Below the pieces are notes generated by a model that was not told the DNA's origin, made no database searches, and saw nothing but the letters and a program-made list of their open reading frames with translations. Of a stretch of DNA of 64,000 nt, positions 2,576 through 45,365 are shown in pieces. A program made the position numbers and the translations under genes. The stretch is taken from the sequence record NC_048195.1; one strand, given 5' to 3'. The first letter of the stretch is position 1, and the number at the start of each line of letters is the position of its first letter. The stretch is from Escherichia phage vB_EcoM_WFC.

Positions 2576-2988
2576 TTGATGATCCCCTTGATGTCTGATT
2601 CTGCCATAAAGATTGGAGTGCCGCCGCCAGGAACAATCGAGCGCGTTACTTTGTCGAACATATCGTTCTCTTCAACTTGAATACGATAAAATTTATTTTT
2701 GGATGAAGATGGGCACAATCCAATAAATTTACCAATGCCGCGAACGCATTCATCTTCAAAGTATACTGTTTCACCTTGAATGGATTCGATGTTTTCAACC
2801 GGATACACCTTGCGACCTAAAAGCCATTCATCCATGGTCGCCTGCAACACGTTTCGCGCATCCAAAATCCAAGGGTCAACTGTGGCACCTTCATATCGCG
2901 CAGCAGTGGCTTTTGCCAGCTCTTCATATTCGCATACGTTTACTACTTCGCCTTGATGAAGGACGACAAATACAATTGTTGTGCTCAT
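2572..2988 (-). CDS. hypothetical protein (138 aa)
   Basis: Overlaps the downstream ORF by 4 nt (operon-like); AT-rich promoter-like region at 2989-3117. Confidence 0.4.
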   Translation of the reverse strand: MSTTIVFVVLHQGEVVNVCEYEELAKATAARYEGATVDPWILDARNVLQATMDEWLLGRKVYPVENIESIQGETVYFEDECVRGIGKFIGLCPSSSKNKFYRIQVEENDMFDKVTRSIVPGGGTPIFMAESDIKGIIK

Positions 2989-3150
2989 TTCAATCTCCTT
3001 TCGTTTGGTTAACTAAAATATAACTCAAAATGATACAAAAGCAAAATATTTTATGAACTATTTATGATTACTATACATATCATTTGCTTACAAACACATG
3101 AATATTTATAATATAGATTGATTCCCTTTCACTGTCAGGTGGCGTTAACA

Positions 3151-13578: not shown

Positions 13579-15117
13579 GTGATCAGTCAATCTCGTTATA
13601 TTAAAATTGTATCAGGGGTCGGAGCAGGCGCGGCTGTTGCAGTTCGCAAACTGTCGCTTCGCATCATGACTTCCAATACAGTTCTGCCGCCAGGCATTGT
13701 AGCAGAATTTTCAACTGCTGATGCCGTTGGATCATATTTCGGTTTTTCTTCCGAAGAATACAAGCGTGCAGCACTGTATTTCGGATTCATCAGCAAGCAA
13801 ATCAACTCGCCTGATTCAATCAGCTTTTCTCGCGTTGTATCCACGGCGATTCCTGCAATGGTTATCGGCGACACTGAGCCTAAAACGCTTGCTACTTTCC
13901 AGGCATTCACTGGCGCTATCTTAAGCATCACTTATGACGGCACAGACTACCTGACTGACGCCATCAACCTTTCAGCGGCAACAAGTCTTGCCAACGTAGC
14001 GGAACTTTTGGAAACGGCAATCAACACCAAGTTTGCAGCAGAAGGTGGCACGTCGGTGCCTGCACTTGCTGATGCGGAAGTGTATTGGAATGCCAACACC
14101 CAGCAGTTCACTTTGGAAGCCGCTCCGTCGACCGCTGGTGCTGGAAACCTTTCGATTAACGTCACAGGTCAACCGACAGACCCATCTCAGGCGCTTGGTT
14201 GGACGACTACTGGCACCGTTACGGTTGCTGGACAGGGTGTAGCAAGTCCGGTAGAAGCCATCGCGGCATCTGTGGAGATTTCCAACAACTTTGGCTCATT
14301 CCTTTTCGCTGGAGCAGACCGAACGCTGGAAGAAATCACAGCCGTTGCAGCTTGGACTCACTCGCAGAACAACATGTACATGTATCTGTTCTCGACTGCA
14401 TTCGCCAACATCGGCTCATACTATACCGCGTTGAAAGGTTACTCAGGCGTTGGTATGATGATCCGTGCAACTAACCTCGCGAATGATTACATCGACCAGG
14501 CACCTGCTGAAATTCTTGCGGCGACAAACTATAACACTGTAAATGCAACTCAAAACTATATGTATTATCAGTTTGAAACGCGAAATGTAACCGTATCGAC
14601 TGATTCACGCGCAGATACTGCTGATCAAAACCGTGCAAACTATATCGGTGCGACTCAGCAAGCTGGTCAAACTCTCGCGTTCTTCCAGCGTGGTGTTCTG
14701 ATGGGCGGGTCTACCGCAGCAGTTGACATGAACACTTATGCCAACGAGATGTGGCTTAAATCTGCTATCACTTCTCAGCTGTTCAGCATGTTCTTGAATC
14801 TTGGTCGCGTGCCTGCAAACGAAGAAGGCAAAGCGACTGTCCAAGCCATGATTCAAGTTGCTGTTGACAATGCGAAGGTTAACGGCACCATCTCTGTCGG
14901 TAAGGCGCTGACGGAAATTCAGAAACAGTACATCACGCAAACCTCCGGTGACAACACTGCTTGGCGCCAGGTTGAGACTATCGGTTATTGGTTGACTGTC
15001 GATTTTGACACTGAAACCACTTCCGATAACCGCACCGAATACTATGCAACATACACGCTAATCTACTCTAAAGATGATGCTGTGCGTCGCGTTGAAGGTC
15101 GTGACGTTCTTATTTAA
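13579..15117 (+). CDS. tail sheath-like protein
   Basis: 512 aa, GTG start with AAGAGG RBS; immediately upstream of the tube gene; size and order typical of contractile-tail sheath. Confidence 0.6.
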   Translation: MISQSRYIKIVSGVGAGAAVAVRKLSLRIMTSNTVLPPGIVAEFSTADAVGSYFGFSSEEYKRAALYFGFISKQINSPDSISFSRVVSTAIPAMVIGDTEPKTLATFQAFTGAILSITYDGTDYLTDAINLSAATSLANVAELLETAINTKFAAEGGTSVPALADAEVYWNANTQQFTLEAAPSTAGAGNLSINVTGQPTDPSQALGWTTTGTVTVAGQGVASPVEAIAASVEISNNFGSFLFAGADRTLEEITAVAAWTHSQNNMYMYLFSTAFANIGSYYTALKGYSGVGMMIRATNLANDYIDQAPAEILAATNYNTVNATQNYMYYQFETRNVTVSTDSRADTADQNRANYIGATQQAGQTLAFFQRGVLMGGSTAAVDMNTYANEMWLKSAITSQLFSMFLNLGRVPANEEGKATVQAMIQVAVDNAKVNGTISVGKALTEIQKQYITQTSGDNTAWRQVETIGYWLTVDFDTETTSDNRTEYYATYTLIYSKDDAVRRVEGRDVLI

Positions 15118-31358: not shown

Positions 31359-31982
31359 TTATTGTCCTGTAACTTCTCTGATCACACGGTCTTCAAGTTC
31401 CAGCTTCTTTACCATTTTGCAGGAGTGCTCATAAGCGGGATCAGTAGATTTGATGAACGTTCCGTTGTACATGACACCTTTGCGGTCCTTGATGTCTTCG
31501 TAGGCCGCTTGCGCACAGTCGGATAAGCGAAGGCCATAATCATGAGCTACGCCGGAAAGGTAATCGACTGCGGCCATGATGGTGACGTCAATATCCATGG
31601 TCTGATTCTTAGCAATAGCATCACCAAGCCGTCCAAGGGTCTTTGCCAGGCGAAGGATGAATGAATGAGGGTGAGCGCCTTTATCAGCGCAACCGCCGCC
31701 ATTAATGTTTTCGATTTCAGTACCGTTTTGCGCCGCCAGGATGGTCAACACAACAAGACAATCGCCAATGTCGTCCTTGATTGCAGCTTGCAAGTCACAG
31801 ATGGCCTGCTCTGTATATCCAATTTCAGGGTCGAAGAACACAAGGTCATGGAGTTGATCAACGTGGTCGGTTAACTCCCCAAACTCGCTGATAAGCTTCG
31901 GGTATTGGTCCTTAAGGTCGCAACCTTGGATGATGTTACGGTCAGAAGCCCACTGGCGAATGTTTGCATAAATCTGTTTCAT
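31359..31982 (-). CDS. MazG-like nucleotide pyrophosphohydrolase (putative)
   Basis: 207 aa; all-alpha pattern with EFGELTDH and DIGDCLVVL acidic motifs resembling MazG/HisE-type NTP pyrophosphatases. Confidence 0.5.
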   Translation of the reverse strand: MKQIYANIRQWASDRNIIQGCDLKDQYPKLISEFGELTDHVDQLHDLVFFDPEIGYTEQAICDLQAAIKDDIGDCLVVLTILAAQNGTEIENINGGGCADKGAHPHSFILRLAKTLGRLGDAIAKNQTMDIDVTIMAAVDYLSGVAHDYGLRLSDCAQAAYEDIKDRKGVMYNGTFIKSTDPAYEHSCKMVKKLELEDRVIREVTGQ

Positions 31983-32555: not shown

Positions 32556-33416
32556 TTAAAACTCTTCTGCGTCGGTCGGAGTTTCATTGACAGGACCAGC
32601 GGCACCGCTTGCTTCTTCCTGCTTGCTGCGGTCGATGTTAACGTTACCGCCAACTACGTCGTTGTGGAATGCCTTGGCGACTTCGTACAGGCCTTTGTCC
32701 TGCACCAGACCTTCCAGCTCAAACTTCAGAACAGACCAGGTGTTGCCGTCTTTGGACTGGGATGCAGTACCCATGCGAACGATGTTCATAAAGGTCGGCG
32801 GCGTTTTCAGACCCTGCGGAGTCTGAACTTTCTTCTGCTGCAGAGCGGTCATCAGCATGCGAGACGGCTTGATCATGGAAGAAGTCAGAGACAGCATTGC
32901 GCTACCAAATTCACCAGTTTCTTCGTTCAACAGAATTACGAAGTGGTTGCGTGTATCTGCGTAGTAAGGAGATTTCTTCTCGTGCACCTTGCCGTTTTCG
33001 TCCGGCACGAATACCTTACCGTTGATCTCAACAGCGCGGCCTGCCGCGACTTCTGCATCAACGTGCTCTTTGGTGAATTCACCTTTAAAGCCTTTATCGT
33101 CGGACTCGCGACCGCCCCAAAGAATGAAGGTGCGTTTGAATGCGCAAGGGATGATTTGCACGCCTTTCTTGCCGTCATACAACTCACCAGTAACGGTGTT
33201 GTAAAGCATGCCAGCTTTTGCGCCAGGAACGTGTTTTGGATCATCTTCGTCGACCATAGGAGACATCTTCTGCAGTACGACGATAAAAGGAATGGCATAC
33301 GCATCGGCATCGGCACCTTCAAAACCAGCGCCAAAATCGGTCATGTCGACAAAATCAGCCATAGCGGACATCTGGGTGTTTTTCACTGCAACTTCGGTGG
33401 TTTCTTTCTTAGACAT
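32556..33416 (-). CDS. putative ssDNA-binding or annealing protein
   Basis: 286 aa; acidic C-terminal tail ending in Phe (TDAEEF), as in T7 gp2.5-type SSBs; position within the replication module. Confidence 0.4.
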   Translation of the reverse strand: MSKKETTEVAVKNTQMSAMADFVDMTDFGAGFEGADADAYAIPFIVVLQKMSPMVDEDDPKHVPGAKAGMLYNTVTGELYDGKKGVQIIPCAFKRTFILWGGRESDDKGFKGEFTKEHVDAEVAAGRAVEINGKVFVPDENGKVHEKKSPYYADTRNHFVILLNEETGEFGSAMLSLTSSMIKPSRMLMTALQQKKVQTPQGLKTPPTFMNIVRMGTASQSKDGNTWSVLKFELEGLVQDKGLYEVAKAFHNDVVGGNVNIDRSKQEEASGAAGPVNETPTDAEEF

Positions 33417-33475: not shown

Positions 33476-34033
33476 TTACTTTTTGCTTTTAGGCAAGGTT
33501 ATTTTAGCTTCTTTGTATTCAAAAACGCTAATATCTTCACTAACTGGATTGCCCGCTTCCAGCTGTTCTTTTACAAACGACTTCAGTGTAGCAGAATGAA
33601 CGCCTTGTTTCAACGTGGCTTCAACACCATCTTCACGCAGCGCAGCAACAATCTCTTGCGCCTGTTCGATTTCTTCGCGACCGAACTCAGCCGTGACGCT
33701 GGACTTGATCAAGCCGCCGTAACCGTTGTTGACAAGCCAATCGAAAACTTTTAATTCGTTTTCTTTCTTGATTGAAGCGTTCACCCTGGACTCGACCTTG
33801 ATTTTGGTCTTGTCCTCAAGCTTGATTTCGGACACGCCAAGCTCATCCATAACGCCAGGAAGCAGAACAGTTTTGATTTCACTGATGCGCTGCTTTTGCA
33901 TATCAGCTTCATCTTCAAGCTCTGTCAAAGCTTCTTGTCGTTCTGCCAGTTCAGACACTAAGCGCGCAAGGCGCTCTTGAATGCTCTCAGGAGCAACCTG
34001 CGGCAAATCATCTTCCCAATTAATATTGCTCAT
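33476..34033 (-). CDS. hypothetical protein (185 aa), acidic coiled-coil N-terminus
   Basis: Replication-module ORF; no recognisable motif. Confidence 0.45.
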   Translation of the reverse strand: MSNINWEDDLPQVAPESIQERLARLVSELAERQEALTELEDEADMQKQRISEIKTVLLPGVMDELGVSEIKLEDKTKIKVESRVNASIKKENELKVFDWLVNNGYGGLIKSSVTAEFGREEIEQAQEIVAALREDGVEATLKQGVHSATLKSFVKEQLEAGNPVSEDISVFEYKEAKITLPKSKK

Positions 34034-35891: not shown

Positions 35892-36310
35892 GACAATTCC
35901 TCTAAATACTTGATGATGTGGTGAATAGTTCCCTTCACGATTATCTCACGTTGAACGTCTGCAATATTATAACGCTTTAATTCAATCGAAGGGTGGACTA
36001 AATAAAACATCTTCTCAGAATCGACTTTAAGCAAAACAAATGATGGGTATTTCCAATCATTCCACGAAGAAAGAAAGCTGCACTGGCCTTTCTCAAATGC
36101 ATTTCTGAAAGGTGCAGTGGTGGCCCTTGCAGGCCACGATTCAAAGAACTTCATTTCAAGCCAAAAGCCGCGACCTTTCCGGTTGGTGCCGATTACGTCC
36201 GGCACACCATCACCCGTCATGGATTCGATTCTTTGAAGCTTCAATACTGATTCTGAATGCTTCTTCAGAGGCACAAAAATGTATTTTTGTTCACGGTTGT
36301 TTGTTGCCAT
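35888..36310 (-). CDS. VRR-NUC domain nuclease
   Basis: GVPDVIG ... WLEMKF fits a PD-(D/E)xK core; start set at the internal ATG 36310 because the ORF-track start would overlap the polymerase gene by 70 nt. Confidence 0.6.
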   Translation of the reverse strand: MATNNREQKYIFVPLKKHSESVLKLQRIESMTGDGVPDVIGTNRKGRGFWLEMKFFESWPARATTAPFRNAFEKGQCSFLSSWNDWKYPSFVLLKVDSEKMFYLVHPSIELKRYNIADVQREIIVKGTIHHIIKYLEELS

Positions 36311-39194
36311 CTGGATACACCTGTTTGATAACGTCGACGATGAACATATCAATGCCTTCAAGCTTGCGGCCTTTCATCAGGAAGAATGCACCGTTCCCGA
36401 CGTTCTCTGCGATGTACTTCCCGTATTTCTGGAACTTCTCTGGGCGAATCCTGAAGCGCATTGGCGAGTCGGTTGAGTCATCCTTGCACATAAGGTCGAT
36501 GAACTGAGTCTCAAGCTTGTTTCCATACTGGTCAAACTCTGCGTAGCGACCATCAGCTTGAAGACCCTTTTTAAGTTTGCCGTGCTTTGTGTAAATGCCG
36601 CGCTCAAGACGTTTACGGATGCGTGTTGCTTCGTTCTCGTCTGCCAGCACTTTCTTGGTCAGTTTGCCGATTACTATTGCACGCTCATCATCGCCTACTT
36701 CCTTCATCTGGCGTATTGAAGCGCCGGAAGTGACGCCAATAAGATATGGGTCATTATATGCCCAGCCGAACTTGGTGTGCATCTCTGTAAGGTCGCCGTA
36801 TTTGACTTCAGCATTGGCCAATGCATCCTTCTGCTTTTGCGTTAAGGTTCCGGCTTCACGTGCTTCGATGTACTTCATCGCCTTCACCATTCCGTACCCT
36901 TTAGCGTTCATGATGCCGCCGATTAGCTTTCCGTTAGCGATGGTCCAGTTCATTGAAGAGTGATCAGGGTCGATTGGCACATAATCCACGCCTTCCTTCG
37001 CAAGTTCACGTAATATCGCAATCGTCTGGTCTTCGTCCTTAGCAGCGCGTAAGCAAGCAGCGGCAAATTCCAACGGGTAGTGTCGTTTAAGCCACAAGGT
37101 CCAGTAGGTCACGACCGCGTATGACACGGAGTGTGACTTGTTAAAGCCCCATGACCCGAACGTCGCCATCGCCTGCCAAAGCTTTCTTGCATCCGCTTCC
37201 GGTACGCCATTATTTATTGCGCCTGCAACGAAGTCTTCGCCAAGCTTGTTAAAGTATTCCTCACCCTTACGGCCTGACATCGCCTTACGTACAGCGGATG
37301 TTTTCGCCCAGTCAAATGAACCAATCTCTTTAACCACGGCCATGATTTGCTCTTGGTAAAGAAACACGCCGTAAGTCTCTTTTAAGTACGGCTCAAGCTG
37401 CGGCACATCATACTCAATCGGTGCACGCCCTGCCGCGCGTTCGATGTATTTCTGGGCCATACCGGATGACAACGGGCCAGGTCGACCAAGTGCTGTCAGG
37501 TTATCGATTTTGTTAAAGTTATCAACGTGCACAAAGTTGGTTACTGAGCGTACAGCGTCACCTTCAAACTGGAAGATGCCTGACATTTTGTTTTCGTTAA
37601 GGATGTCAAGGACGCTTTGATCATCAAGCTTGATTCCGTACAGCGTTTCAGCATCTATCACGCCAGTATCAGAAATGATGCCGAGGGTACGAAGGCCCAA
37701 CGCATCAAGCTTCAAAAGGTTAAGGTATTCGCTGTCAGGCTTATCAATTTGCGCAATCCCTTCTGCAGTTACAGTACAGTAATCAGAGATTGGGTCATTA
37801 CACACAATGATTCCCGCTGCGTGAACACCTGTGTGAGACGGGTGAATCTCAAGGTCACCCATGCAACGCGCGGCGTCAGGATATTTCGCCACGAACTCTT
37901 GACCCGTGGTCGTTGTTGCAAAGGTATCCTCCAGGCCGTGACCATAACGGGCGTCACCGGATGAGTATTCAAGCAGTGCGTTTTTAATGTTGGCCGTTTC
38001 GTGGTATCCAATGTTGAACTTCTTACCAACCTGCGCCATTACTGAGTTGGCCTTAAGCGTGTTGATGTTGCCAAGCTTTGCAACGTTCATTTCGCCGTAT
38101 TTCTCTTTAAGATAATCAAACACCATATAGCGTTTGGTATCTTCAAAGTCGATGTCGATGTCAGGAAGGTCGGCGCGGCTTACGTCGATGAATCGGGCAA
38201 ACAGCAGCTTATACGGTATTGGGTCCACTTCCGTGATGCCGAGGCAATAGCAAACAAGTGAACCAGCCGATGAGCCGCGTGCAGGACCGACAAGCATTTT
38301 TGTTTTTGCGAATCGTACAAGGTCGGCTACTACCAGAAAGTATGAGTCGAAATCTTTCAGCTGAATCTGGTGAATTTCTTCGTTGAAGCGGTCCTCATAT
38401 TCCTGAGTCCATTCTTTGATGTGACCTGCTTTTAGACGGTACTCCATCCCCTCGCGAGCAAGCTTTACCATGTCACCAGCAAGGTGAATAATCGGTGCCT
38501 TACGCAATTTCAAGTCAAGTCCGACTATGCCGTTTGCTATGTCAACAGCATTGGCCGTTGCCTGATTGAGCTCATCTTCAGTCAAGATGCCTTTAAGCTG
38601 TTTGCGCAAGTCTTCCACGTCAACGATGCAATGCGGCTTCACAGTGTCGCGAACTTCCCAAGCATAAGCGAAGTCAACGTGCTCAGGAGAAGGCATGTGA
38701 TTGTATCCGGTTAAAACCAGCGGCCTTCCACCGCTACGATGAGCCAATGCCTGGCGCTTTGCCAAAAGGAACGATGATGGGTTGACGTCTATATAGTCGT
38801 AGTCCTCTGGCCGCAGCAGCTCCACGGCACCGCCACAGAATTTAACGACGCCATCGAGCGCCCCGAACTCTGCACGGGTAAGTCCACCGCGCTGCGTTGC
38901 AAGTGTTGTAGCGTTGTAAAAAGATTTTAAGTCAAGGGCCAATATCCAAGCCTTCGGTTTGAATCCCTTTTTCGGGTCCGCATCAGGGTCGATGATTGGA
39001 ATCTCCATCCCAAACATAGGCTTAATATCATTTTTCTGGCATTCCTTTTCCCAGCGAACGTGACCCCATGTATTGTTATCAACTAATGCCGCGACTTCGC
39101 AGCCCAACTCTTTGAGCCGTGCTATAATTTCAGGATGCCGTCCATAAACTTCTTTGAACGTGTAACCGCTGCGAACTCTCAATTGTGGAAACAT
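36291..39194 (-). CDS. DNA polymerase III alpha-like (DnaE-type) replicative polymerase
   Basis: 967 aa; N-terminal PHP-like domain (LRVRSGYTFKEVYG ... IKPMFGMEI) followed by polymerase core. Confidence 0.85.
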   Translation of the reverse strand: MFPQLRVRSGYTFKEVYGRHPEIIARLKELGCEVAALVDNNTWGHVRWEKECQKNDIKPMFGMEIPIIDPDADPKKGFKPKAWILALDLKSFYNATTLATQRGGLTRAEFGALDGVVKFCGGAVELLRPEDYDYIDVNPSSFLLAKRQALAHRSGGRPLVLTGYNHMPSPEHVDFAYAWEVRDTVKPHCIVDVEDLRKQLKGILTEDELNQATANAVDIANGIVGLDLKLRKAPIIHLAGDMVKLAREGMEYRLKAGHIKEWTQEYEDRFNEEIHQIQLKDFDSYFLVVADLVRFAKTKMLVGPARGSSAGSLVCYCLGITEVDPIPYKLLFARFIDVSRADLPDIDIDFEDTKRYMVFDYLKEKYGEMNVAKLGNINTLKANSVMAQVGKKFNIGYHETANIKNALLEYSSGDARYGHGLEDTFATTTTGQEFVAKYPDAARCMGDLEIHPSHTGVHAAGIIVCNDPISDYCTVTAEGIAQIDKPDSEYLNLLKLDALGLRTLGIISDTGVIDAETLYGIKLDDQSVLDILNENKMSGIFQFEGDAVRSVTNFVHVDNFNKIDNLTALGRPGPLSSGMAQKYIERAAGRAPIEYDVPQLEPYLKETYGVFLYQEQIMAVVKEIGSFDWAKTSAVRKAMSGRKGEEYFNKLGEDFVAGAINNGVPEADARKLWQAMATFGSWGFNKSHSVSYAVVTYWTLWLKRHYPLEFAAACLRAAKDEDQTIAILRELAKEGVDYVPIDPDHSSMNWTIANGKLIGGIMNAKGYGMVKAMKYIEAREAGTLTQKQKDALANAEVKYGDLTEMHTKFGWAYNDPYLIGVTSGASIRQMKEVGDDERAIVIGKLTKKVLADENEATRIRKRLERGIYTKHGKLKKGLQADGRYAEFDQYGNKLETQFIDLMCKDDSTDSPMRFRIRPEKFQKYGKYIAENVGNGAFFLMKGRKLEGIDMFIVDVIKQVYPDGNKQP

Positions 39195-39736
39195 TATTTA
39201 CTCCAGATGTCATATACGCCAATTTGTTGGCAGACTTTGTGCAGTAATATTACGTCGTCTAATGCACGGTGCTTCTGTTCATATTTTCCGAAATATAATT
39301 CATACAGCTCTTGAAGCTTAACTCTTCGGCCAAAAATAGGCAAGGTTTGCTCAACTGTACATATGTTTATTTCTGGAAAATTAACATCATCAAGCGTAAG
39401 TCCTTCGCGCTGTAGTGCATAATCAAGAATGTTTTTATCGAACGCATGGTTGTGCGCGATAGTTGCATCAGTCTTCTTGAAGATTTCTTTTAGCTGCGGG
39501 ACGAAATTGATGAACGGTGGATTGCACTCAAGATCTTCATTTGTTAATCCGGTAATCTTTGTGATAATTTCTTCAATCACGATTTCAGGATTAATTATGA
39601 ATTCAAACGTTTCAAGAATCTCTTTGCCGTCTGTCAGCAAGCCTGCAAATTCAATAGGGCGCGGCTGCATCCCAAGCGGCGCTTTCGGGTGCACGGTCAA
39701 TCCGGTTGTTTCGAAGTCATAAGGGAGAAATAACAC
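39194..39736 (-). CDS. DnaQ-like 3'-5' exonuclease (proofreading subunit)
   Basis: 180 aa; Exo I YDFETTGL, Exo II HNHAFD, Exo III HRALDD. Confidence 0.85.
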   Translation of the reverse strand: MLFLPYDFETTGLTVHPKAPLGMQPRPIEFAGLLTDGKEILETFEFIINPEIVIEEIITKITGLTNEDLECNPPFINFVPQLKEIFKKTDATIAHNHAFDKNILDYALQREGLTLDDVNFPEINICTVEQTLPIFGRRVKLQELYELYFGKYEQKHRALDDVILLHKVCQQIGVYDIWSK

Positions 39737-39790
39737 ATTAGCCTCCTACAAAAAGGCCGCCCATTAGGACGGCCACAGATTCACGATTCG

Positions 39791-40342
39791 TTATACAGTG
39801 TACGGAGTACCGTCTTGATTCAAGCGCACGATAAACTTCAAATCAACGCCGATGATTTCACGCGTATCAAAGATCACATAGTTGTAACGACGTTGACCAG
39901 CAATGTTTGGGTTGGTGTGAGAGTCGGTCACAACTTCCTGCGCAACCTGAATGCCTTCTTCTTTAAAGAACTTGCGCCATTCAGCAAGTTCAGCGGCAGT
40001 CACGTGCATACCAAGATGGCTAACCTGATTGTCGTGCGCATCGATGTATTCGATGTTTTCGTGAATCCAGTTGCAACCTTTTGTATAGTCAAGAATTTCA
40101 AGCTCAAGAGGCTTACCAGCGCCGCCATCGGTGCCGTTGCCAGCCTGATAGTTGAAGCGCAAGTCAGCTTCGTTGGTGCAATCGCCGCGCTGACCCTTAA
40201 AGACATCAGCTTCAAATACGCGACCAGTAGCAACAACGTGATCATGGAACCATTCTGTCAGGCCGATTTTAGCCAGGAAATTCTGTGCGCGCTGAGCACC
40301 TGGAATTGACAGGGCGATTTGTTCAATTTTAAAATGTGGCAT
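39791..40342 (-). CDS. hypothetical protein (183 aa), possibly glyoxalase/VOC-like fold
   Basis: Weak His/Glu pattern only; low-confidence fold guess. Confidence 0.4.
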   Translation of the reverse strand: MPHFKIEQIALSIPGAQRAQNFLAKIGLTEWFHDHVVATGRVFEADVFKGQRGDCTNEADLRFNYQAGNGTDGGAGKPLELEILDYTKGCNWIHENIEYIDAHDNQVSHLGMHVTAAELAEWRKFFKEEGIQVAQEVVTDSHTNPNIAGQRRYNYVIFDTREIIGVDLKFIVRLNQDGTPYTV

Positions 40343-40438
40343 TTTGTTTCCTTAATTAAATATTATTGATTAATTACTGTGTTGTCTTCGTCCTGTTTCT
40401 TTTCAGGAGCGGGTGTGACAACTTCAAATGTTCGTGAT

Positions 40439-41122
40439 TTATTTACCAAATGGAATATCAGTGCCAGACATAAAGCGCCATGCGCCCGTAATTAAGATAT
40501 GGCGAATGAAGTCAGCAATTACTTGCGGCTCAGTCTCCAATCCATTCATCAATGCCTTTTTCTGGTATTCAGCGGCGTATTCAGGAGTCCAGCCGCGAGT
40601 CGCGCAAACGGCATCTTCAATCTGTTTAGACATGCCAGTGCCGCGCAACTTGTTAGGACTAATAGAGAATACCGTGATGCCGTACTTAGGCGTAAGTTCG
40701 TGAGCCATCTGCTTGCTGATCATAAGCGCAGCAGCCTTGGATGCATTATAACATAAGCTGGACGTCATAGGAATATGCGCAGCGTTGGAAACGATGTTGA
40801 TCACAAAGCCTTTGTTGTCGATAAGACTTTTCAGCGCAGCCTGAGTCGTGTTAACGAAAGAGAATGCGTTGGTGTGCATAACGCGGTTAAACTCTTCATA
40901 GTTTACATCTTCAAACCAATTGTTAGAGTTGACACCAGCACAGTTGATCAAGCCTTCAACATCATATGGGCTTAAAATTTCTTTCATCTGTTTAGCATCG
41001 CGGACGTCATATCCGTATGCTGAATCGATGCCAAGCACGTTATGACCGTAAGCGCCAAGGGTGTCAAAAATAGATTTACCAAGACCGGAATTGGAACCTG
41101 TTACAACAATTACTTTTTTCAT
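40439..41122 (-). CDS. short-chain dehydrogenase/reductase (SDR) family oxidoreductase
   Basis: 227 aa; TGSNSGLG cofactor-binding motif and YNASK catalytic YxxxK. Confidence 0.8.
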   Translation of the reverse strand: MKKVIVVTGSNSGLGKSIFDTLGAYGHNVLGIDSAYGYDVRDAKQMKEILSPYDVEGLINCAGVNSNNWFEDVNYEEFNRVMHTNAFSFVNTTQAALKSLIDNKGFVINIVSNAAHIPMTSSLCYNASKAAALMISKQMAHELTPKYGITVFSISPNKLRGTGMSKQIEDAVCATRGWTPEYAAEYQKKALMNGLETEPQVIADFIRHILITGAWRFMSGTDIPFGK

Positions 41123-41188
41123 TTATTTATCCTTTTTTGGACTTCGTTTCGATGAGGTAAATATAACTCATCGAAACGCACAAGTAAA

Positions 41189-42064
41189 CTATTTATTGAA
41201 ATTAATATTATGGGTGTTGACAAGACGTTCACACATGGCGCTATAAACACCATCATCGTGTATCGAGTCTTCATGCTTCAGGCCGCTGATTGCGAAGCGT
41301 GTAAGCTTGACAATCTTAAGCTCGAACAGGTGCCACATGTGGTAGTCTTCCGGTGTCTTCAACGTTACGCCATTAGGGAACAACACCTGCATAACCTGAC
41401 CTACCATCACAGCGTTATCGCCATAAACGGCATTGCGCTCACGGAAGGTCGCGGCCATCGCATCAAGAATATCAGCAGCGGTTGCTGGGGCTTGTTGTTC
41501 AACTTCAACAAGTTTAGTCTCTTCTTTCCCTGTTGCACTTGGATCAACTGCTAATTGTTGCACCACTTCACCTGCCTTGCAAAGATTAAATGTAAAGGCG
41601 ATTTTATTTTGCGCCATGGAATTATAATGCAAAGCTTCTTCTTGCATCCGCGCGAGTACGTCTTGTCTATCTTCAAATACGTTGATTATTCGATAATCGC
41701 CGTGTCGCAATACATACGATAACCATGCAGATTTCATAACAGTTGATGGACGCTTGTCGCCATGTTCTCTCATCTTGATTGTGAATTCATCAAAAGGGAA
41801 AACGTTGTCCAGACGTTCAAAAGTGACTTGTCTGTATTTTTCTGGTCTTGCAGTCCAATATTCAACCGCCTCACCGCGAAGTGATGCCGTCTCTACTGCT
41901 GACGCAATGTTAGGATAGAACTGATCATAACCAATGCCGCTGTGGTAATCATCATAGTCGGACAACGGGCCTGCCACCCTGATACGGTCTAAGCGCCAAC
42001 GGTCATCAAACAGAGTTCCGTCAAGGTCGAATACGTTTAAGATTTGGTTATTTTTGATACTCAT
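41189..42064 (-). CDS. HAD-superfamily phosphatase fused to an unknown C-terminal domain
   Basis: 291 aa; N-terminal FDLDGTLFDD (DxDxT) motif; C-terminal ~130 aa unassigned. Confidence 0.65.
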   Translation of the reverse strand: MSIKNNQILNVFDLDGTLFDDRWRLDRIRVAGPLSDYDDYHSGIGYDQFYPNIASAVETASLRGEAVEYWTARPEKYRQVTFERLDNVFPFDEFTIKMREHGDKRPSTVMKSAWLSYVLRHGDYRIINVFEDRQDVLARMQEEALHYNSMAQNKIAFTFNLCKAGEVVQQLAVDPSATGKEETKLVEVEQQAPATAADILDAMAATFRERNAVYGDNAVMVGQVMQVLFPNGVTLKTPEDYHMWHLFELKIVKLTRFAISGLKHEDSIHDDGVYSAMCERLVNTHNINFNK

Positions 42065-42864
42065 CCTTTTGATACTCCATCTTTGGCAACTGGATTATTG
42101 GTGATTGGCATCGCATCCCAAAACTGGATGCGCAACTCTTCTTGCTGTGCAGTGGTATCCATCCAATCACGATACCATGGGCAATGGGCCTTACCGTGAC
42201 GAGGAAATGCGCACTTACCCATACCGATGCACTGCGGCTGTAGTAAAGGATTGGCCCACGGGTGCACCTTAAGGACTTCCGCAACCATTGCACGGAATAC
42301 TTCTTGATACTCGCCTTGAGTACGCGTGCACAAGCGGTTAGAGGCCATTTGTTGTAGAGTGCGCAAGTTGAACTTTGCCATGATATGCGTTTGCATATTA
42401 GAAGGCAACACGGCACGTGCATCTTGAATCTCTGCGCCAGCCGCGCGAAGTTCTTGGTATAGGGCGTCAATGGTTGCCATTGCATCATCCCATTTCTCTG
42501 CCAGTTCAGCAGCCTTCTCGTCATGACGAGTCCATCCCTTTGGATCATCCTCTGGGTAAGTAAATTTGGCAGGACGAATCGCATCAAACGCTGATGACTC
42601 TTGAGCGCGGCTTGTGCGTTCTTGATATGCACCTGTTCGTGTGCGCACCATCTGATGAGTCATATTCTTTGATACATCAGTGATGTCAAAGATATAGTCA
42701 ACAAAGTCGAAAGGTGACTTGATGGTGTCAAGCATGTAGCGCCAGTGCTCTTGCTTCTCTGATTCTGTCATCTCAGAGACGGGCTTGCCAGTCATGCGCG
42801 TGTTCTTTGTTTCCAGCAAAAGGTCAAGTGCATCTTGGGTGTATCGAATTAATTCAACTTTCAT
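42061..42864 (-). CDS. flavin-dependent thymidylate synthase (ThyX)-like protein with divergent signature motif
   Basis: 267 aa; SPFDFVDYIFDI ... VRTRTGAYQERTSR parallels the ThyX region around the RHRxxxxxxxS motif, but His is replaced (RTR) and the distal residues differ. Confidence 0.6.
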   Translation of the reverse strand: MKVELIRYTQDALDLLLETKNTRMTGKPVSEMTESEKQEHWRYMLDTIKSPFDFVDYIFDITDVSKNMTHQMVRTRTGAYQERTSRAQESSAFDAIRPAKFTYPEDDPKGWTRHDEKAAELAEKWDDAMATIDALYQELRAAGAEIQDARAVLPSNMQTHIMAKFNLRTLQQMASNRLCTRTQGEYQEVFRAMVAEVLKVHPWANPLLQPQCIGMGKCAFPRHGKAHCPWYRDWMDTTAQQEELRIQFWDAMPITNNPVAKDGVSKG

Positions 42865-42877
42865 TTTAATTATCCTA

Positions 42878-43324
42878 TTAACGGTAGTTAACTAGTTGCT
42901 GATCACCAGAGAAGGTGCAATGATAAACGAATTGTGCGTTATAAAGCAACTGAAAACTTTTCTTTGGTTCATTATTAGAACTCATTGATGTAAAGATTTC
43001 TGCACCAGAACGGTTTTCACCAATAAGGTTGATAAAGCCGCCAGTTGAACGAGGTTGGACGAAAGTGAAACGTTGCATCCACGGAGTGCGGTTGGCACCT
43101 TTCCCTGTGAATCCCTGAATCTGAATATTCAGACCTTCTTGCTCGTTCACACCGATGTAAGTGGTAATTGTTGCGCCAGTCGTCGCTGCAGTCTTGCCGT
43201 CCATCGCTTCGCAATCGTAAACAGCGATTGAATCGGAAGTACGGACAGCGGCTTCAGTCGCTTCCATATACATGGTTCCGAGAATAGCAGTTGCGGCAAG
43301 CGCGATTCCAGTGATGCGTTTCAT
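42878..43324 (-). CDS. secreted protein with N-terminal signal peptide
   Basis: 148 aa; MKRITGIALAATAILGTMYMEA then polar mature part. Confidence 0.45.
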   Translation of the reverse strand: MKRITGIALAATAILGTMYMEATEAAVRTSDSIAVYDCEAMDGKTAATTGATITTYIGVNEQEGLNIQIQGFTGKGANRTPWMQRFTFVQPRSTGGFINLIGENRSGAEIFTSMSSNNEPKKSFQLLYNAQFVYHCTFSGDQQLVNYR

Positions 43325-43389
43325 TTTCGTTTCCTCTATGAGTTCTGCTTCAATGATTAAAGTATACGCCCATTGAAGCAGAAAGCAAA

Positions 43390-44385
43390 TTATTTATTAG
43401 CAATATAAGCAAATTTTTGATAGTTATTTGCTTTGATGAGTTTTTCAACTTCAGCAAGGTCATGGGCGACGTCATCAAGCAAAATGTTTCGCCAAGTAGC
43501 GAATCGACCGACACTAAATACGTTCAAATCCATGGTCAGTTGCAGGAGTAGGGCGTGTCGTAAGTCTTTCGGAATGTCGACAATCTTGCCATACTTCTGG
43601 TCAACCTTTTCAACTTCTTCAAGAGCGATGTCACTCCATGAGAGGCCAAAAGCCGTCAATACTTCGTCAACTTCTGCACGCAACTTAATGTCACGGTAAC
43701 GAGTAATGCCGCCAGCGGCTTCAACTGCGGCTTCACTTACGCTAACCAAAGGAATTGTTTCAATGATCAGCGTGTCACCAGTGATTGATGCGCGGTAAGT
43801 TCTGACGGAGTAGTCAGGAAAGTAAATGGTTTGATACAGTTCACACTTGCGTTTAATCTTAAAGCGGTAAACACGAATGTTTGCCTTATCGAATGAGAAA
43901 TCAATCTTTTGATCAATCCCAGCAAGCTTCATCATGACTGGCAGCGGCGATGTGTTGATGATTGGCGTCTCGCTATAGCCGCAAAGCGTGTCGACCGGAG
44001 TATTAAAGAATATACGGTCACCCAGTTTATCGACAAGCTGATCATAAAAGTCATCAGGCGCAATATAACGCGTTGCAGTTTTAAGCTTCATGATTGAACG
44101 GCTGCCAAACTGATTGGTGACCTTCATGGAATACATATTGGCAAGGTTGATTGGGCAATGGTCGTGATAGTAGTTACCGCGAAAATACACAGCCTTGTCA
44201 ACTGTCACGGCCTTAAAAGGGATTCCGGTAATACGGCTTACTTCTTCGCCGCGAAAGCGTAGCAGTGCCTTGTGCTGTGGCGCTCGCTCCCCTGCTTCGT
44301 ACACAATAGAGTTCGGGAAGTGACACGCGGTAATAAGTCCTGCCAAACCGCCGCCGATAATCATTACAGGTTGTTTCATGTTCAT
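43390..44385 (-). CDS. FAD/NAD(P)-binding oxidoreductase
   Basis: 331 aa; N-terminal dinucleotide-binding motif VMIIGGGLAGL. Confidence 0.7.
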   Translation of the reverse strand: MNMKQPVMIIGGGLAGLITACHFPNSIVYEAGERAPQHKALLRFRGEEVSRITGIPFKAVTVDKAVYFRGNYYHDHCPINLANMYSMKVTNQFGSRSIMKLKTATRYIAPDDFYDQLVDKLGDRIFFNTPVDTLCGYSETPIINTSPLPVMMKLAGIDQKIDFSFDKANIRVYRFKIKRKCELYQTIYFPDYSVRTYRASITGDTLIIETIPLVSVSEAAVEAAGGITRYRDIKLRAEVDEVLTAFGLSWSDIALEEVEKVDQKYGKIVDIPKDLRHALLLQLTMDLNVFSVGRFATWRNILLDDVAHDLAEVEKLIKANNYQKFAYIANK

Positions 44386-44519
44386 TTGTCCTTTGTGGGT
44401 GATATGAGAAGTATAATAGCTAAATTATTTTACAGCAACAAGTCATTTCTATTTAGTACAGACGAAAAAAGACCCACAACAAGTGTGGGTCAATTACCGC
44501 TATATAACCGTCCTACAGG

Positions 44520-45365
44520 TTATTCCGCTTGATCACCGTCTTCAGCATCGTCGTTGGATTCAACATCGACAAACTCGATGTGGCCCATCTCTTCCAGCTT
44601 GCTCAGGTAGGAGCGAACGGAAGCGCCAAACAGTTGATCTTTAACTTTTTCGCCCAGCTCATCGATAGACTGTGCCACACCAACTTCGCCTTCTTTGATC
44701 GCCGCCAGAACGCGTCCACGGGTGGAATGCTCTTGCGGCTGGCTCAGGCCATTGCCAGTGTAGATGAAGTGAGTGGCTTTTGCACGACGCTGACCGTTTG
44801 CCTTTTTAGCAGCCTTACGTTCTGCGATGGCTTTGCGACGTTCTTCAGCTTCTTTCTTACGCTGTTCTTTCTGCTGTTCTGCAGCTTCTTTCGCCGCAAT
44901 CTTAGCAGCTTCACGCTCTGCCTTGCGTTTCGCTTTAGCTTCTTCTTTGGCCTTCTCTTTTTCGGCCTTCGCTGCAGCACGGGCTTGATCACGCTCTGCT
45001 TTCTTGGCCGCAGCCTGCTCAGCTTTCAGGCGCTTGGCTTCTTCTTTAGCCTTTGCCTTTTCGATTTCTTTTGCTGCTTTAGCGGCTTCACGCTCTGCTT
45101 TCTTAGCAGCAGCCTTTTCTGCACGCTCTTTAGCTTTCTTAGCTGCTTCTTCAGCACGCTTCTGAGCCTTCTCATCAGCAGCCTGCTTGCGTTTCAGCGC
45201 AGCTTCTTCACGCTTGGCTTGTTTTTCCTGCTCACGCTTCTGGCGTTTTTCTTCGGCTTCTTTCTTTTTAGCCAGGCGTTTTTCTTCAGCCACGCGACGA
45301 CGTTCTGCTGCGGCTGCTTGTTTTTCTTCTTTAGATAATACTTTGATTGCTTCGGCCATATTCAC
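44520..45365 (-). CDS. highly charged Lys/Glu/Ala-rich protein (predicted long single alpha-helix) with small C-terminal domain
   Basis: 281 aa; about 200 residues of KAEKEAAKKA-type low complexity, then an ~80 aa globular tail and acidic end. Confidence 0.55.
   Translation of the reverse strand: MNMAEAIKVLSKEEKQAAAAERRRVAEEKRLAKKKEAEEKRQKREQEKQAKREEAALKRKQAADEKAQKRAEEAAKKAKERAEKAAAKKAEREAAKAAKEIEKAKAKEEAKRLKAEQAAAKKAERDQARAAAKAEKEKAKEEAKAKRKAEREAAKIAAKEAAEQQKEQRKKEAEERRKAIAERKAAKKANGQRRAKATHFIYTGNGLSQPQEHSTRGRVLAAIKEGEVGVAQSIDELGEKVKDQLFGASVRSYLSKLEEMGHIEFVDVESNDDAEDGDQAE

Follow-up and report, generated by a model that had tools for sequence, protein, structure and literature searches.

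A terminator-bracketed Wifcevirus cassette with a divergent ThyX and a UGM-like flavoprotein as a candidate thymidine hypermodification module

The six-gene cassette described here, with genes denoted A to F (Table 1), is the best candidate for a DNA hypermodification pathway without assigned genes, because its F–D–C trio is common to Pbunavirus relatives that carry sugar-decorated thymidine. From its gene content, folds, synteny and co-occurrence, and because no known hypermodification enzyme was detected, we give an even chance to the reading that it is a new type of thymidine hypermodification module; that these genes cause the modification, that the Wifcevirus phage has one, and all of the chemical steps are what we infer.

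Layout and genomic context of the cassette

The window, i.e. the whole 64-kb stretch of DNA that was analysed, is from a Wifcevirus and has 99% identity to vB_Eco4M-7. The six minus-strand open reading frames that the initial annotation had placed at 39791-44385 were all found, with exact coordinates, and two strong minus-strand hairpins enclose exactly these six genes, the upstream hairpin being the 5′ limit of the cassette and the downstream hairpin its 3′ limit; the annotation of phage Mansfield has terminators at places equivalent to both. The grouping is not due to chance, because of this enclosure and because the gene order is kept in very distant viral contigs, where the F–D–C block is syntenic with the DnaE-type polymerase/DEDDh exonuclease pair. 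A MazG-like gene reported outside the cassette was confirmed by its PHROG match, and its product may serve in dNMP supply or dNTP exclusion. If MazG and the proteins of replication and lysis are set aside, all recognisable small-molecule enzymes of the window are encoded in the cassette. Scans of the 64 kb agreed with the initial annotation in finding no ThyA-like sequence, ribonucleotide reductase or dCMP deaminase, the last two of which are also missing from the annotations of near-identical genomes.

Table 1. Features of the cassette and its surroundings (positions in the window)
Feature	Position	Strand	Remarks
Upstream terminator-like hairpin	44471..44491	-	8-bp stem, T-run; between a Lys/Ala/Glu-rich gene and F
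F, FAD-binding protein, 331 aa, UGM/amine-oxidase fold	43390..44385	-	phrog_4828
E, 148 aa, Sec signal-peptide-like N-terminus (by inspection)	42878..43324	-	no family match
D, ThyX-family protein, 267 aa	42061..42864	-	Pfam Thy1
C, 291 aa, phosphatase fused to C-terminal domain	41189-42064	-	HAD_PNKP
C, N-terminal domain: capless HAD phosphatase, DLDGT motif	41540..42064	-	without kinase domain
C, C-terminal domain: four-helix, DUF6378-like	41192..41479	-	13/16 members
B, classical SDR, 227 aa	40439..41122	-	TGxxxGxG, YxxxK; Pfam adh_short E 2.6e-31
A, VOC/glyoxalase-like (weak), 183 aa	39791..40342	-	Pfam Glyoxalase_4 E 0.09
Downstream terminator-like hairpin	39755..39774	-	8-bp stem, 7 G-C pairs, T-run; just 3′ of A
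DEDDh exonuclease (context)	39194-39736	-	with DnaE-type polymerase spans 36291..39736
DnaE-type DNA polymerase (context)	36291-39194	-	adjoins DEDDh exonuclease
MazG-like pyrophosphohydrolase	31359..31982	-	PHROG 3e-62; outside cassette

The encoded enzymes and the conservation of the F–D–C core

F had been called an FAD/NAD(P)-binding oxidoreductase, in keeping with its N-terminal GxGxxG-Glu FAD motif and with an AlphaFold model (pLDDT 88) that matches FAD enzymes, with UDP-galactopyranose mutases (UGMs) ranked first (E 1.6e-10, TM 0.65, identity 13%) and monoamine oxidases, protoporphyrinogen oxidase and renalase close behind. F has no Pfam match, GLF included, and the predicted resemblance to UGMs is at the level of the fold only: UGMs (Glf) are 367-510 aa long compared to 331 aa for F, hhalign of F with E. 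coli Glf aligns just 21 N-terminal residues, and F is unaccompanied by sugar-nucleotide or glycosyltransferase genes. At its C-terminus, a GRFATWRN-LLDD motif presumably resembles the GR..Y.Y..MD motif of UGMs.

The ThyX fold of D was borne out by profile search of 42061-42864, in which Pfam Thy1 spans residues 5-203 (E 1.2e-30, 107 bits, above the Pfam threshold); the score against the curated thyX equivalog TIGR02170, 83.1 bits, is just below the cutoff of 87.9. The signature region, already noted as divergent, reads VRTRTGAYQERTSRAQ, and its RTR motif is conserved in 118 of the 120 closest D homologues, but the change of H to T in RHR is not diagnostic alone, as this position varies between T, H, S, Q and N inside a large ThyX clade. 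The clade is better marked by QGEY in place of QWEI and by loss of the equivalents of T. maritima His53, His59 and Tyr91, which we take to be residues of the folate/flavin pocket and which are Ile, Phe and Ala in D. The dUMP-contacting Arg/Gln residues are all retained (equivalents of Gln75, Arg78, Arg80, Arg90, Arg147 and Arg174), a four-cysteine site (C179, C212, C218, C228) co-varies, and a C-terminal Cx5Cx9C insert co-varies with the RLC cysteine. Compared to T. maritima ThyX TM0449 (PDB 1O26), D shares the Thy1 domain, the dUMP-binding Gln/Arg set and the overall RxR...(S/T)xR signature, and differs in the Thr for the RHR His, the Ile/Phe/Ala and QGEY replacements, the cysteine insert and the score under the TIGR02170 cutoff; unlike canonical ThyX, it is also obligately linked to a second flavoprotein, F.

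C had been described as a HAD phosphatase with an unassigned domain. The fusion was confirmed, with 30.8 bits against HAD_PNKP (cutoff 27.6), T4 Pnkp 3′-phosphatase and class B/C acid phosphatases as the structures nearest to the HAD domain, and a C-terminal part that is DUF6378-like in most members; across loci, identity in this part reaches 74%, versus about 30% in the HAD domain. The SDR call for B also stands, without a specific SDR subfamily, while the VOC-like call for A is a weak one: 8/10 members of its family match Glyoxalase_4 (best E 1.2e-4), and the match of A itself is poor. About 60% of F-bearing loci have B, and A accompanies it. E, whose N-terminus does resemble the signal peptide previously claimed for it, occurs at only three Wifcevirus-like loci among the 80 viral loci with F (E 95-96% and F 97-98% identical) and is probably an inserted passenger and not a pathway member.

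Beside the DnaE-type polymerase, F, D and C make up an ancient synteny block that is almost confined to viruses. In IMG/VR, D is within 10 kb of F in 75/80 viral loci, and the other five have little or no sequence on the side where D is expected. Among 185,579 cellular species genomes, D was near F in all six matches, each of them a MAG contig with phage synteny, with F identity as low as 29-37%. The F family is virus-restricted and nearly always adjoins a D-type ThyX, a linkage that extends to 206-kb Rhizobium phages and to a Cronobacter podophage of 42 kb whose F and D genes overlap. In Pbunavirus, D (about 49% identity), F (about 39-40%) and C lie between the exonuclease and a Dda-like helicase, in the same order as in Wifcevirus. 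The view of all six genes as one conserved unit had to be given up, with E confined to Wifcevirus and A and B missing from Pseudomonas Pbunavirus, leaving F–D–C as the core.

Modified thymidine in relatives and comparison with known systems

Yee et al. (bioRxiv 2025.03.31.646159 / PMC12191111) found sugar-derived hypermodified thymidine in TG context in the virion DNA of Pbunavirus F8 and 14-1. The nucleosides are novel thymidine derivatives with masses of 362 and 390 Da, take the place of about a quarter of T and were read as tetrose-alcohol and cyclised-pentose derivatives; the preprint names no biosynthetic genes, and F8 DNA was cleaved by EcoRI (PMC12191111). The TG specificity implies a DNA-level, sequence-reading enzyme, a role that is unlikely for a ThyX tetramer. 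The adducts of F8 and 14-1 differ although their D and F proteins are 94% and 97% identical, so the adduct-determining gene may be elsewhere.

F8 and 14-1 are myoviruses related to Wifcevirus, share its replication-module order and encode D, F and C homologues, and Wifcevirus too evades restriction with no mechanism known: the phage's close relatives within Wifcevirus, Bas98-101, are reported to resist the RM systems tested except EcoP1_I. The RM systems of the BASEL panel used on them reportedly include EcoRI. RM sites are not depleted in the window, which has 20 EcoRI, 5 EcoRV and 6 EcoKI sites. The modification has been measured in Pbunavirus only, with no modified base reported for any Wifcevirus, and Pseudomonas Pbunavirus lacks the SDR and VOC genes of the cassette. 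As the restriction patterns of F8 and Bas98-101 differ, any Wifcevirus adduct may differ in nature or sequence context. The pyrimidine hypermodification route suggested in the initial annotation gains support from the Pbunavirus thymidine and from the RM resistance of Wifcevirus relatives, and the link from genes to modification is one that we infer.

Replacement of part of the T by a bulky, nuclease-blocking derivative substituted at the C5-methyl would be an outcome shared with phages M6, ViI, SP10, PhiW-14 and PaMx11 (Lee et al. 2018; 2021, PMC8989533), and the cassette pathway, like theirs, would begin with thymidylate-synthase-family chemistry at the C5 of dUMP. However, those phages use a ThyA-family dUMP hydroxymethylase, where the cassette has a ThyX-type member, with a 5-hmU DNA kinase and aGPT-Pplase-type transferases, none of which was detected in the 64 of about 68 kb covered, and their groups are derived from amino acids or polyamines whereas the Pbunavirus adducts are derived from sugars. 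Base J and the products of phage 5mYOX T-dioxygenases (PMC13229309), which arise by T oxidation after replication and subsequent glycosylation, and the arabinosyl-5-hydroxycytosine of RB69 and DLP3 (PMC13326640), are likewise sequence-specific sugar-bearing DNA pyrimidines, and phage sugar-donor pathways also combine sugar-tailoring enzymes with a HAD phosphatase, which acts in the arabinosyl-5hoC pathway (PMC13326640). In contrast to the cassette, these systems depend on either a ThyA homologue or a TET/JBP dioxygenase, as well as on DNA glycosyltransferases and a nucleotidyltransferase; no TET/JBP dioxygenase, ParB or glycosyltransferase was detected in the same 64 of about 68 kb, and no nucleotidyltransferase in the window.

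Competing explanations and the proposed pathway

Hypermodification is favoured because the cassette is a discrete terminator-bracketed unit, because the F–D linkage extends far past the Wifcevirus/Pbunavirus lineage, because D departs from ThyX at His53/His59/Tyr91 yet keeps its dUMP-binding residues, because a UGM-like fold, an SDR and a HAD phosphatase suit the sugar-derived Pbunavirus bases, because Wifcevirus relatives are RM-resistant in spite of the sites present and, by elimination, because no known hypermodification enzyme is detectable. Against it, the restriction resistance could be explained by an anti-restriction protein, A and B are missing in the sole lineage with a measured modification, and the conservation of F–D–C with the replicase over very different hosts would also fit housekeeping nucleotide supply.

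This last point leads to the main rival, an explanation that is unlikely but far from negligible: D would be a genuine dTMP synthase, flavin-dependent and from a divergent viral clade, as is possible because every dUMP-contacting residue is kept and the Pfam threshold passed, and any DNA modification would be made by other genes. F would be its dedicated flavoprotein partner, e.g. an NAD(P)H-linked reductase or one-carbon donor enzyme replacing the functions of His53/His59, and C a nucleotide phosphatase or pyrophosphatase feeding or balancing the dUMP/dTMP pool, in line with the likeness of its HAD domain to nucleotidases and the T4 Pnkp phosphatase. The window has no other thymidylate synthase, the trio accompanies the replicase like a core replication accessory, a stoichiometric F–D pair is suggested by the frequent overlap of the two genes, and the F8 and 14-1 adducts differ while D and F are nearly identical. 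Plain T also makes up about three quarters of Pbunavirus T (PMC12191111). The explanation nevertheless leaves the Pbunavirus hypermodification without any recognisable enzyme and gives no role to the SDR and VOC genes, which share the bracketed unit at about 60% of loci; D scores under the curated thyX cutoff, and a UGM/amine-oxidase fold would be unusual for a flavin reductase. Characterised ThyX enzymes carry out NAD(P)H oxidation on their own and are not known to require a partner.

It is improbable that the cassette and MazG only remodel the dNTP pool, with nothing installed in DNA. The targets could be, for instance, host or non-canonical nucleotides, which would be dephosphorylated or degraded, or signalling nucleotides of defence systems, which would be removed. 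Such auxiliary enzymes are common in phages, the window does encode a pyrophosphohydrolase and a nucleotidase-like HAD domain, and no function is known for DUF6378, but the obligate F–D pairing, the SDR/VOC pair and the modified thymidine of relatives with the same core would all go unexplained. Very improbable, in our view, is a pathway in which F acts as a genuine NDP-sugar pyranose-furanose mutase and, with the SDR, VOC, phosphatase and E, modifies host surface glycans or virion proteins, ThyX being a mere neighbour. Structurally, F is best matched by UGMs, the Mansfield annotation names its gene UDP-galactopyranose mutase, O-antigen is the receptor on which Wifcevirus depends and E has its signal-peptide-like N-terminus; yet no nucleotidyltransferase or glycosyltransferase was found in the window, the sequence match of F to Glf is limited to the N-terminal dinucleotide-binding motif, E is restricted to Wifcevirus while F–D–C is ancient, and F is linked to the replicase and ThyX rather than to genes for structure or lysis.

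In the hypermodification reading, the core module would comprise the UGM-like flavoprotein F, the divergent ‘type-3’ ThyX D and the PNKP-like HAD phosphatase–DUF6378 fusion C, extended in Wifcevirus by B and A, with E as a passenger. D would perform flavin-dependent one-carbon chemistry at the C5 of dUMP, giving dTMP or a 5-methylene/5-hydroxymethyl handle, and F may apply flavin-N5 chemistry to a sugar or to the thymine methyl group in DNA. C could strip phosphate from the attached sugar phosphate or from a nucleotide intermediate, and B and A may tailor the sugar through reduction and epimerisation/isomerisation. The module would thereby make, or assist in making, a sugar-derived thymidine hypermodification of the phage’s own DNA, related in Wifcevirus to the 362-Da and 390-Da derivatives of F8 and 14-1, which would shield the genome against restriction.

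A bracketed cassette and its conserved core

Six minus-strand ORFs, here called A to F, were found at exactly the coordinates given in the initial annotation, and the window that carries them represents about 64 of the approximately 68 kb of a Wifcevirus genome. Strong terminator-like hairpins enclose exactly these six genes and no other, and terminators are annotated at both equivalent places in phage Mansfield, so the block can be regarded as a discrete cassette, which, given the bracketing hairpins, looks like one transcription unit. Upstream of F there is a weak promoter-like match alone (44451-44424), and the 96-nt gap between A and B (40343-40438) is where an extra 71-aa gene is annotated in Mansfield. 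Between positions 39000 and 45500 the window shares 99.2% identity with Escherichia phage vB_Eco4M-7 and 93-97% with the rest of the genus, among them the BASEL phages Bas98-101.

Features of the cassette and of neighbouring genes (window positions unless stated otherwise)
Feature	Coordinates	Strand	Description
Hairpin	39774-39755	minus	strong, terminator-like; downstream cassette boundary
A	39791-40342	minus	VOC-like, weak
B	40439-41122	minus	classical SDR, adh_short E 2.6e-31
C	41189-42064	minus	HAD_PNKP 30.8 bits vs 27.6 cutoff
C-terminal domain of C	41192-41479	minus	four-helix, last ~100 residues
D	42061-42864	minus	ThyX family, Thy1 (Pfam PF02511) E 1.2e-30
E	42878-43324	minus	signal-peptide-like N-terminus, no family match
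F	43390-44385	minus	PHROG 4828, function not annotated
Hairpin	44491-44471	minus	strong, terminator-like; upstream cassette boundary
Lys/Ala/Glu-rich protein	44520-45365		281 aa, pI 9.6, annotated 'TolA'
MazG-like protein	31359-31982		
Pam3_Gp34 protein	32556-33416		Pfam E 4e-86
DUF7307 / Pam3 gp33-like protein	33476-34033		Pfam E 7e-37
ORF70 of Pbunavirus	2928-4232 (14-1), 13894-15090 (F8)		numbering of compared stretches

The most informative computed result of our analysis is the conservation of these genes across viruses. A tblastn search of 50,697 phage records detected the flavoprotein F in 360 and the ThyX protein D in 496, the two sets overlapping in Pbunavirus (292 Pseudomonas phages), Wifcevirus and Serratia, Xanthomonas, Pantoea, Rhizobium and other phages. 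The order in the window is matched by that in the Pseudomonas phages PB1, F8 and 14-1, where polymerase and exonuclease are followed by C, one small ORF, D, another five small ORFs, F, a Lys/Ala/Glu-rich protein and a Dda-like helicase. The ThyX gene of the 42-kb Cronobacter podophage Ss1 is overlapped at its start by F, and Rhizobium phages of 206 kb have F, D and a C-like protein all within 6 kb. Of the 80 loci that the F profile retrieved from IMG/VR, 75 have D no more than 10 kb from F, and in the other five the retrieved sequence has little or nothing on the side where D is expected; 67 of the 80 carry the C-terminal domain of C, 51 carry B, 48 carry A and three carry E, these three all being Wifcevirus. 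Scanning one genome per species for 185,579 bacterial and archaeal species yielded six F homologues only, each on a MAG contig with the order F-D-C(-B-A)-exonuclease-polymerase, even at 29-37% F identity. Together, the IMG/VR loci and the cellular scan indicate that F is essentially virus-restricted and tied to D-type ThyX.

As far as gene content and order indicate, F-D-C is the ancient core, and it adjoins a DnaE-type replicase. A and B, which are absent from Pseudomonas Pbunavirus, form a frequent extension elsewhere, and E is a local insertion. The interval between D and F holds E in Wifcevirus only and five small ORFs in Pbunavirus, and for that reason looks like an insertion hotspot. The Lys/Ala/Glu-rich protein, mostly low-complexity with a short globular C-terminus, keeps its place next to F in 33 of the 80 viral loci and also in Pbunavirus, where it is ORF66.

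Enzyme families of the cassette

The placing of D in the ThyX family by the initial annotation is upheld by a Thy1 score of 107.1 bits against a gathering score of 24.8 (residues 5-203); for TIGR02170, the NCBIfam thyX equivalog, D reaches 83.1 bits, just under the curated cutoff of 87.9. The protein is alignable to Thermotoga maritima ThyX across the core. Where the canonical signature is RHRxxxxxxxS and then RY, D reads RTRTGAYQERTSRA, the changes being His to Thr, Ser to Thr and Tyr to Ala, and it carries VRTRTGAYQERTSRA; RTR occurs in 118 of 120 close homologues. We searched 1.8 billion cluster representatives for homologues and aligned 117 full-length matches. The equivalents of T. maritima Gln75, Arg78, Arg80, Arg90, Arg147 and Arg174, which we take to be its dUMP-contacting residues, are the identical residues in D, none of them being conserved in fewer than 111 of the 117 representatives, while His53 and His59, presumably the folate/flavin-pocket histidines, and Tyr91 correspond in D to Ile48, Phe54 and Ala87, the clade consensus being Ile, Phe and Val/Thr/Ile/Ala, with QWEI changed to QGEY. 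Judged from this alignment, D belongs to a large ThyX clade that keeps the dUMP-contacting residues, and its putative activity may be the conversion of dUMP, CH2-THF and NAD(P)H to dTMP. The departure from RHR to which the annotation had drawn attention is real in D, but it is not diagnostic on its own, since the histidine position varies inside the clade (T in 65, H in 28, S in 7, Q in 7 and N in 6); histidine loss was rejected as a marker accordingly.

D also contains four cysteines, namely C179 in an RLC motif beside the Arg174 equivalent and C212, C218 and C228 in a C-terminal Cx5Cx9C insert, and their co-variation is near perfect, with all four present in 60 of the 117 ThyX representatives, none in 53 and a mixture in four. 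This pattern suggests a Cys4 metal site (Zn or Fe-S) that has no counterpart in T. maritima ThyX. The four cysteines also occur in some viral ThyX proteins with canonical motifs and are missing from the F-linked ThyX of Cronobacter phage Ss1 and the Rhizobium phages. ThyX-like proteins of actinophages (Mycobacterium, Gordonia) represent a third motif type, R[QS]R...S[TM]R[FA], e.g. RQR...STRF, with QFEW in the Gordonia and Erk16 genes and QWEI in Aikoy; like D they are without equivalents of His53 and His59, and no F homologue was found in the genomes of these actinophages in the phage-collection search.

Gene F had been described as an FAD/NAD(P)-binding oxidoreductase, a call which is borne out as to the FAD motif and an FAD-enzyme fold, and which can be refined in that the nearest fold is that of UDP-galactopyranose mutase (UGM). 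FAD binding is indicated by the GxGxxG motif (IIGGGLAGL, with G11, G13 and G16 invariant in 41-44 sequences), the invariant Glu30 that follows and a C-terminal GRFATW motif. Apart from the N-terminal FAD motif, F has no Pfam, NCBIfam or PDB sequence match, and single-sequence and profile searches against solved structures returned that motif only. A model built from a 41-homologue alignment (pLDDT 88.4, pTM 0.85) was compared with the PDB by Foldseek, which placed UGMs first (E 1.6e-10, TM 0.65, 13% identity, rmsd ~7 A), with MAO, PPOX and renalase close behind (TMq 0.55-0.64). On this predicted structure F is probably an FAD enzyme of the UGM/amine-oxidase fold, nearest to UGM and not a demonstrable UGM; membership by sequence is not claimable, as an hhalign comparison of E. 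coli Glf with the F family gave a probability of 3.6% over 21 columns, all in the N-terminal residues. For a UGM, which interconverts UDP-Galp and UDP-Galf, a galactofuranosyltransferase would be the expected companion; neither a glycosyltransferase nor a nucleotidyltransferase was found in the window.

Gene C begins straight at the HAD motif DLDGT (residues 13-17), and the best structural matches of its model (pLDDT 87.5) are the 3'-phosphatase of T4 Pnkp and class B/C acid phosphatases. It differs from a T4-type polynucleotide kinase/phosphatase in having the HAD 3'-phosphatase domain without the P-loop 5'-kinase domain, the remainder being DUF6378-like and helical, so the database name 'polynucleotide kinase/phosphorylase' is misleading and was rejected. 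The unassigned second domain noticed earlier is indeed present, being DUF6378-like in 13 of 16 family members, and it is far better conserved across viral loci than the HAD domain (up to 74% versus ~30% identity). Sequence and profile searches of C against solved structures gave nothing, the fold search of the two-domain model was dominated by HAD and produced no DUF6378 assignment, and a literature search returned no function for DUF6378 or DUF3310. The two domains of C are set apart in Pbunavirus by a linker of acidic low-complexity sequence, and the gene that follows ThyX in Cronobacter phage Ss1 has a DUF3310 domain instead.

Of the remaining genes, B has the Rossmann motif VTGSNSGLG (TGxxxGxG) and the catalytic YNASK (YxxxK) expected of the SDR protein it was said to be. 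It scores far below every specific NCBIfam cutoff (FabG, glucose dehydrogenase, DhbA), e.g. 74.7 against 222 bits, so a FabG identity was rejected in favour of general membership of the superfamily. The VOC-like suggestion for A is partly sustained: the Glyoxalase_4 match is weak in A itself (E 0.09, 13.5 bits against a threshold of 27) and is shared by eight of ten relatives (best E 1.2e-4), and sequence and profile searches against solved structures gave no match. The N-terminus of E is signal-peptide-like, as annotated, and its occurrence in Wifcevirus only led us to reject it as a pathway member.

Sugar-derived thymidine and a possible role of the cassette

A 2025 preprint reported that Pbunavirus DNA, previously thought unmodified, resists enzymes with TG-containing sites, and that digests of F8 and 14-1 yield previously unseen nucleosides (362 and 390 Da), which replace about one quarter of T and were read as tetrose sugar-alcohol and cyclised aldopentose derivatives of thymidine (PMC12191111). 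Biosynthetic genes for these adducts are named neither there nor in the later literature that we searched, and our search found no report of DNA modification or restriction digests for any Wifcevirus. In the window 26.7% of T precedes G, which is of the same order as the reported modified fraction; TA is under-represented (observed/expected 0.69), with TG (1.14) and CA (1.16) slightly over-represented. Site avoidance is not the explanation for the restriction resistance reported for close Wifcevirus relatives, for which sensitivity to EcoP1_I (AGACC) is also on record, since 20 EcoRI, five EcoRV and six EcoKI sites are present in the window. Counted over enzymes with differing T contexts (EcoRI, EcoRV, NdeI, ApaLI, FspI, DraI and HindIII), it contains between 5 and 55 sites for each.

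Two routes to hypermodified thymidine are known, one using a ThyA-type hydroxymethylase, a 5-hmU DNA kinase and transferases (PMC8989533), the other TET/JBP-type T-dioxygenases and glycosyltransferases (PMC13229309). Our scan covered ten larger non-structural ORFs and 39 mostly smaller ones (six shared; Pfam E<=0.01 for the 39). E. coli ThyA gave no tblastn match in the window and no dUMP hydroxymethylase of its family is annotated in relatives; neither a 5-hmU DNA kinase nor aGPT-Pplase transferases appeared in Pfam/PHROG scans of the remaining non-structural ORFs, from which very divergent members could escape; and no TET/JBP Fe(II)/2OG dioxygenase, ParB or glycosyltransferase was seen in the ORFs scanned. 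The cassette therefore differs from the pathways of Lee et al. (2018/2021), sharing none of their enzymes detectably, and from the 5mYOX (TET/JBP) route, whose dioxygenase and glycosyltransferase were not found. Non-canonical thymidine, the product of the former pathways, is reported in Pbunavirus relatives only. As initially stated, ThyA, ribonucleotide reductase and dCMP deaminase are lacking from window scans, the ThyA tblastn and relatives' annotations, and the nearby MazG-like gene is real by PHROG/Pfam scan.

Considering these results together, we put at even chances the view that the cassette is the best candidate for a new type of thymidine hypermodification pathway. The pyrimidine hypermodification raised in the initial annotation gains from the finding that relatives sharing F, D and C carry sugar-derived thymidine adducts, from the absence of any known pathway enzyme, and from the position of these genes as the sole recognisable small-molecule enzymes of the genome beyond replication, lysis and MazG; what stays conjectural is the assignment of steps. 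The enzyme types (two flavoenzymes, one acting on pyrimidine C5 and one sugar-mutase-like, together with a phosphatase, a reductase and possibly an epimerase) also fit pyrimidine C5 chemistry and sugar-phosphate handling. D would act at the nucleotide level to give dTMP or a 5-methylene/5-hydroxymethyl handle, the target of F would be either the sugar or the thymine of DNA, C would take off a phosphate, and B and A might tailor the sugar. There are real weak points: the modified thymidine was reported for Pbunavirus relatives and not for Wifcevirus, an enzyme that reads DNA would be needed for the TG specificity seen in Pbunavirus and none was identified, and the F8 and 14-1 adducts differ though D (94% identity) and F (97%) hardly do, C being 85% identical. 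D also appears to retain all that is needed for dUMP binding, as would be expected if it were simply the thymidylate synthase of the phage with F as its obligate flavoprotein partner. Such a partner would itself be unusual for ThyX, and we hold this explanation, the main rival, to be rather unlikely.

A bolder form of the hypermodification reading, which we consider distinctly improbable, is that D and F are a two-flavoprotein machine installing a sugar-derived side chain at pyrimidine C5 without glycosyltransferase, hydroxymethylase or DNA kinase. Covalent catalysis by way of iminium adducts at flavin N5 is known from both the ThyX (CH2=N5) and the UGM (sugar-C1=N5) family, which makes direct joining of a sugar phosphate possible: one of its carbons would be linked straight to C5 of dUMP, or else to the 5-methylene intermediate, C would then dephosphorylate, and the product would serve a DnaE-type polymerase that has co-evolved. 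By our arithmetic 362 Da equals dU plus a C5H11O4 chain, or 5-hmdU plus tetritol minus water, and 390 Da equals dU plus C6H11O5, or 5-hmdU plus pentose minus water, so the reported masses fit either linkage, direct to C5 or via a 5-methylene. Should this prove true, it would reveal a new enzymatic logic for the hypermodification of DNA as well as a type of reaction new to either flavoenzyme family.

Genes outside the cassette also deserve mention. Within ORF54-73, the stretch compared between F8 and 14-1 for an adduct-determining gene, ORF70 is the most divergent protein (62% identity, central segment replaced; most neighbours 93-99%). The protein combines coiled coils with a zinc-ribbon-like, CxxC-rich motif and shows no enzyme features; F8 and 14-1, the pair in which it diverges, also differ in their thymidine adducts. 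The Pam3_Gp34 and DUF7307 proteins, both of families named after Pseudomonas phage Pam3, sit as a conserved pair inside the replication module and could be candidates for the missing DNA-level step. The MazG-like protein may be two-domain, as its C-terminal half matches PHROG 'DNA binding protein' families (phrog_1994, 1.2e-17).

Meaning for phage DNA modification

Pbunavirus is among the Pseudomonas phages most used in therapy. Whether a phage can be stopped by restriction enzymes, type IV nucleases and CRISPR depends on the hypermodification of its DNA, which for that reason matters for the choice and engineering of therapeutic phages. Thymidine hypermodification is an established type of system in phages, and the adducts of Pbunavirus had been reported before; what is new is a candidate gene set for the modification that shares no enzyme with the known routes, a ThyX subfamily defined by obligate pairing with a UGM-like flavoprotein, and the prediction of a related modification in Wifcevirus, an experimentally tractable coliphage genus. 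Wifcevirus coliphages can be grown on E. coli K-12 derivatives, and vB_Eco4M-7 has been rebooted from synthetic DNA (PMC11074155).

Were the pathway refuted, a ThyX subfamily with an obligate second flavoprotein would still be defined, which is of interest for flavin-dependent thymidylate synthesis. If confirmed, it would represent a new biosynthetic logic built from a ThyX-type enzyme and a mutase-like flavoprotein, would account for an unexplained restriction-resistance phenotype, and would make the F-D-C block a genomic marker predicting modified DNA in hundreds of viral contigs.
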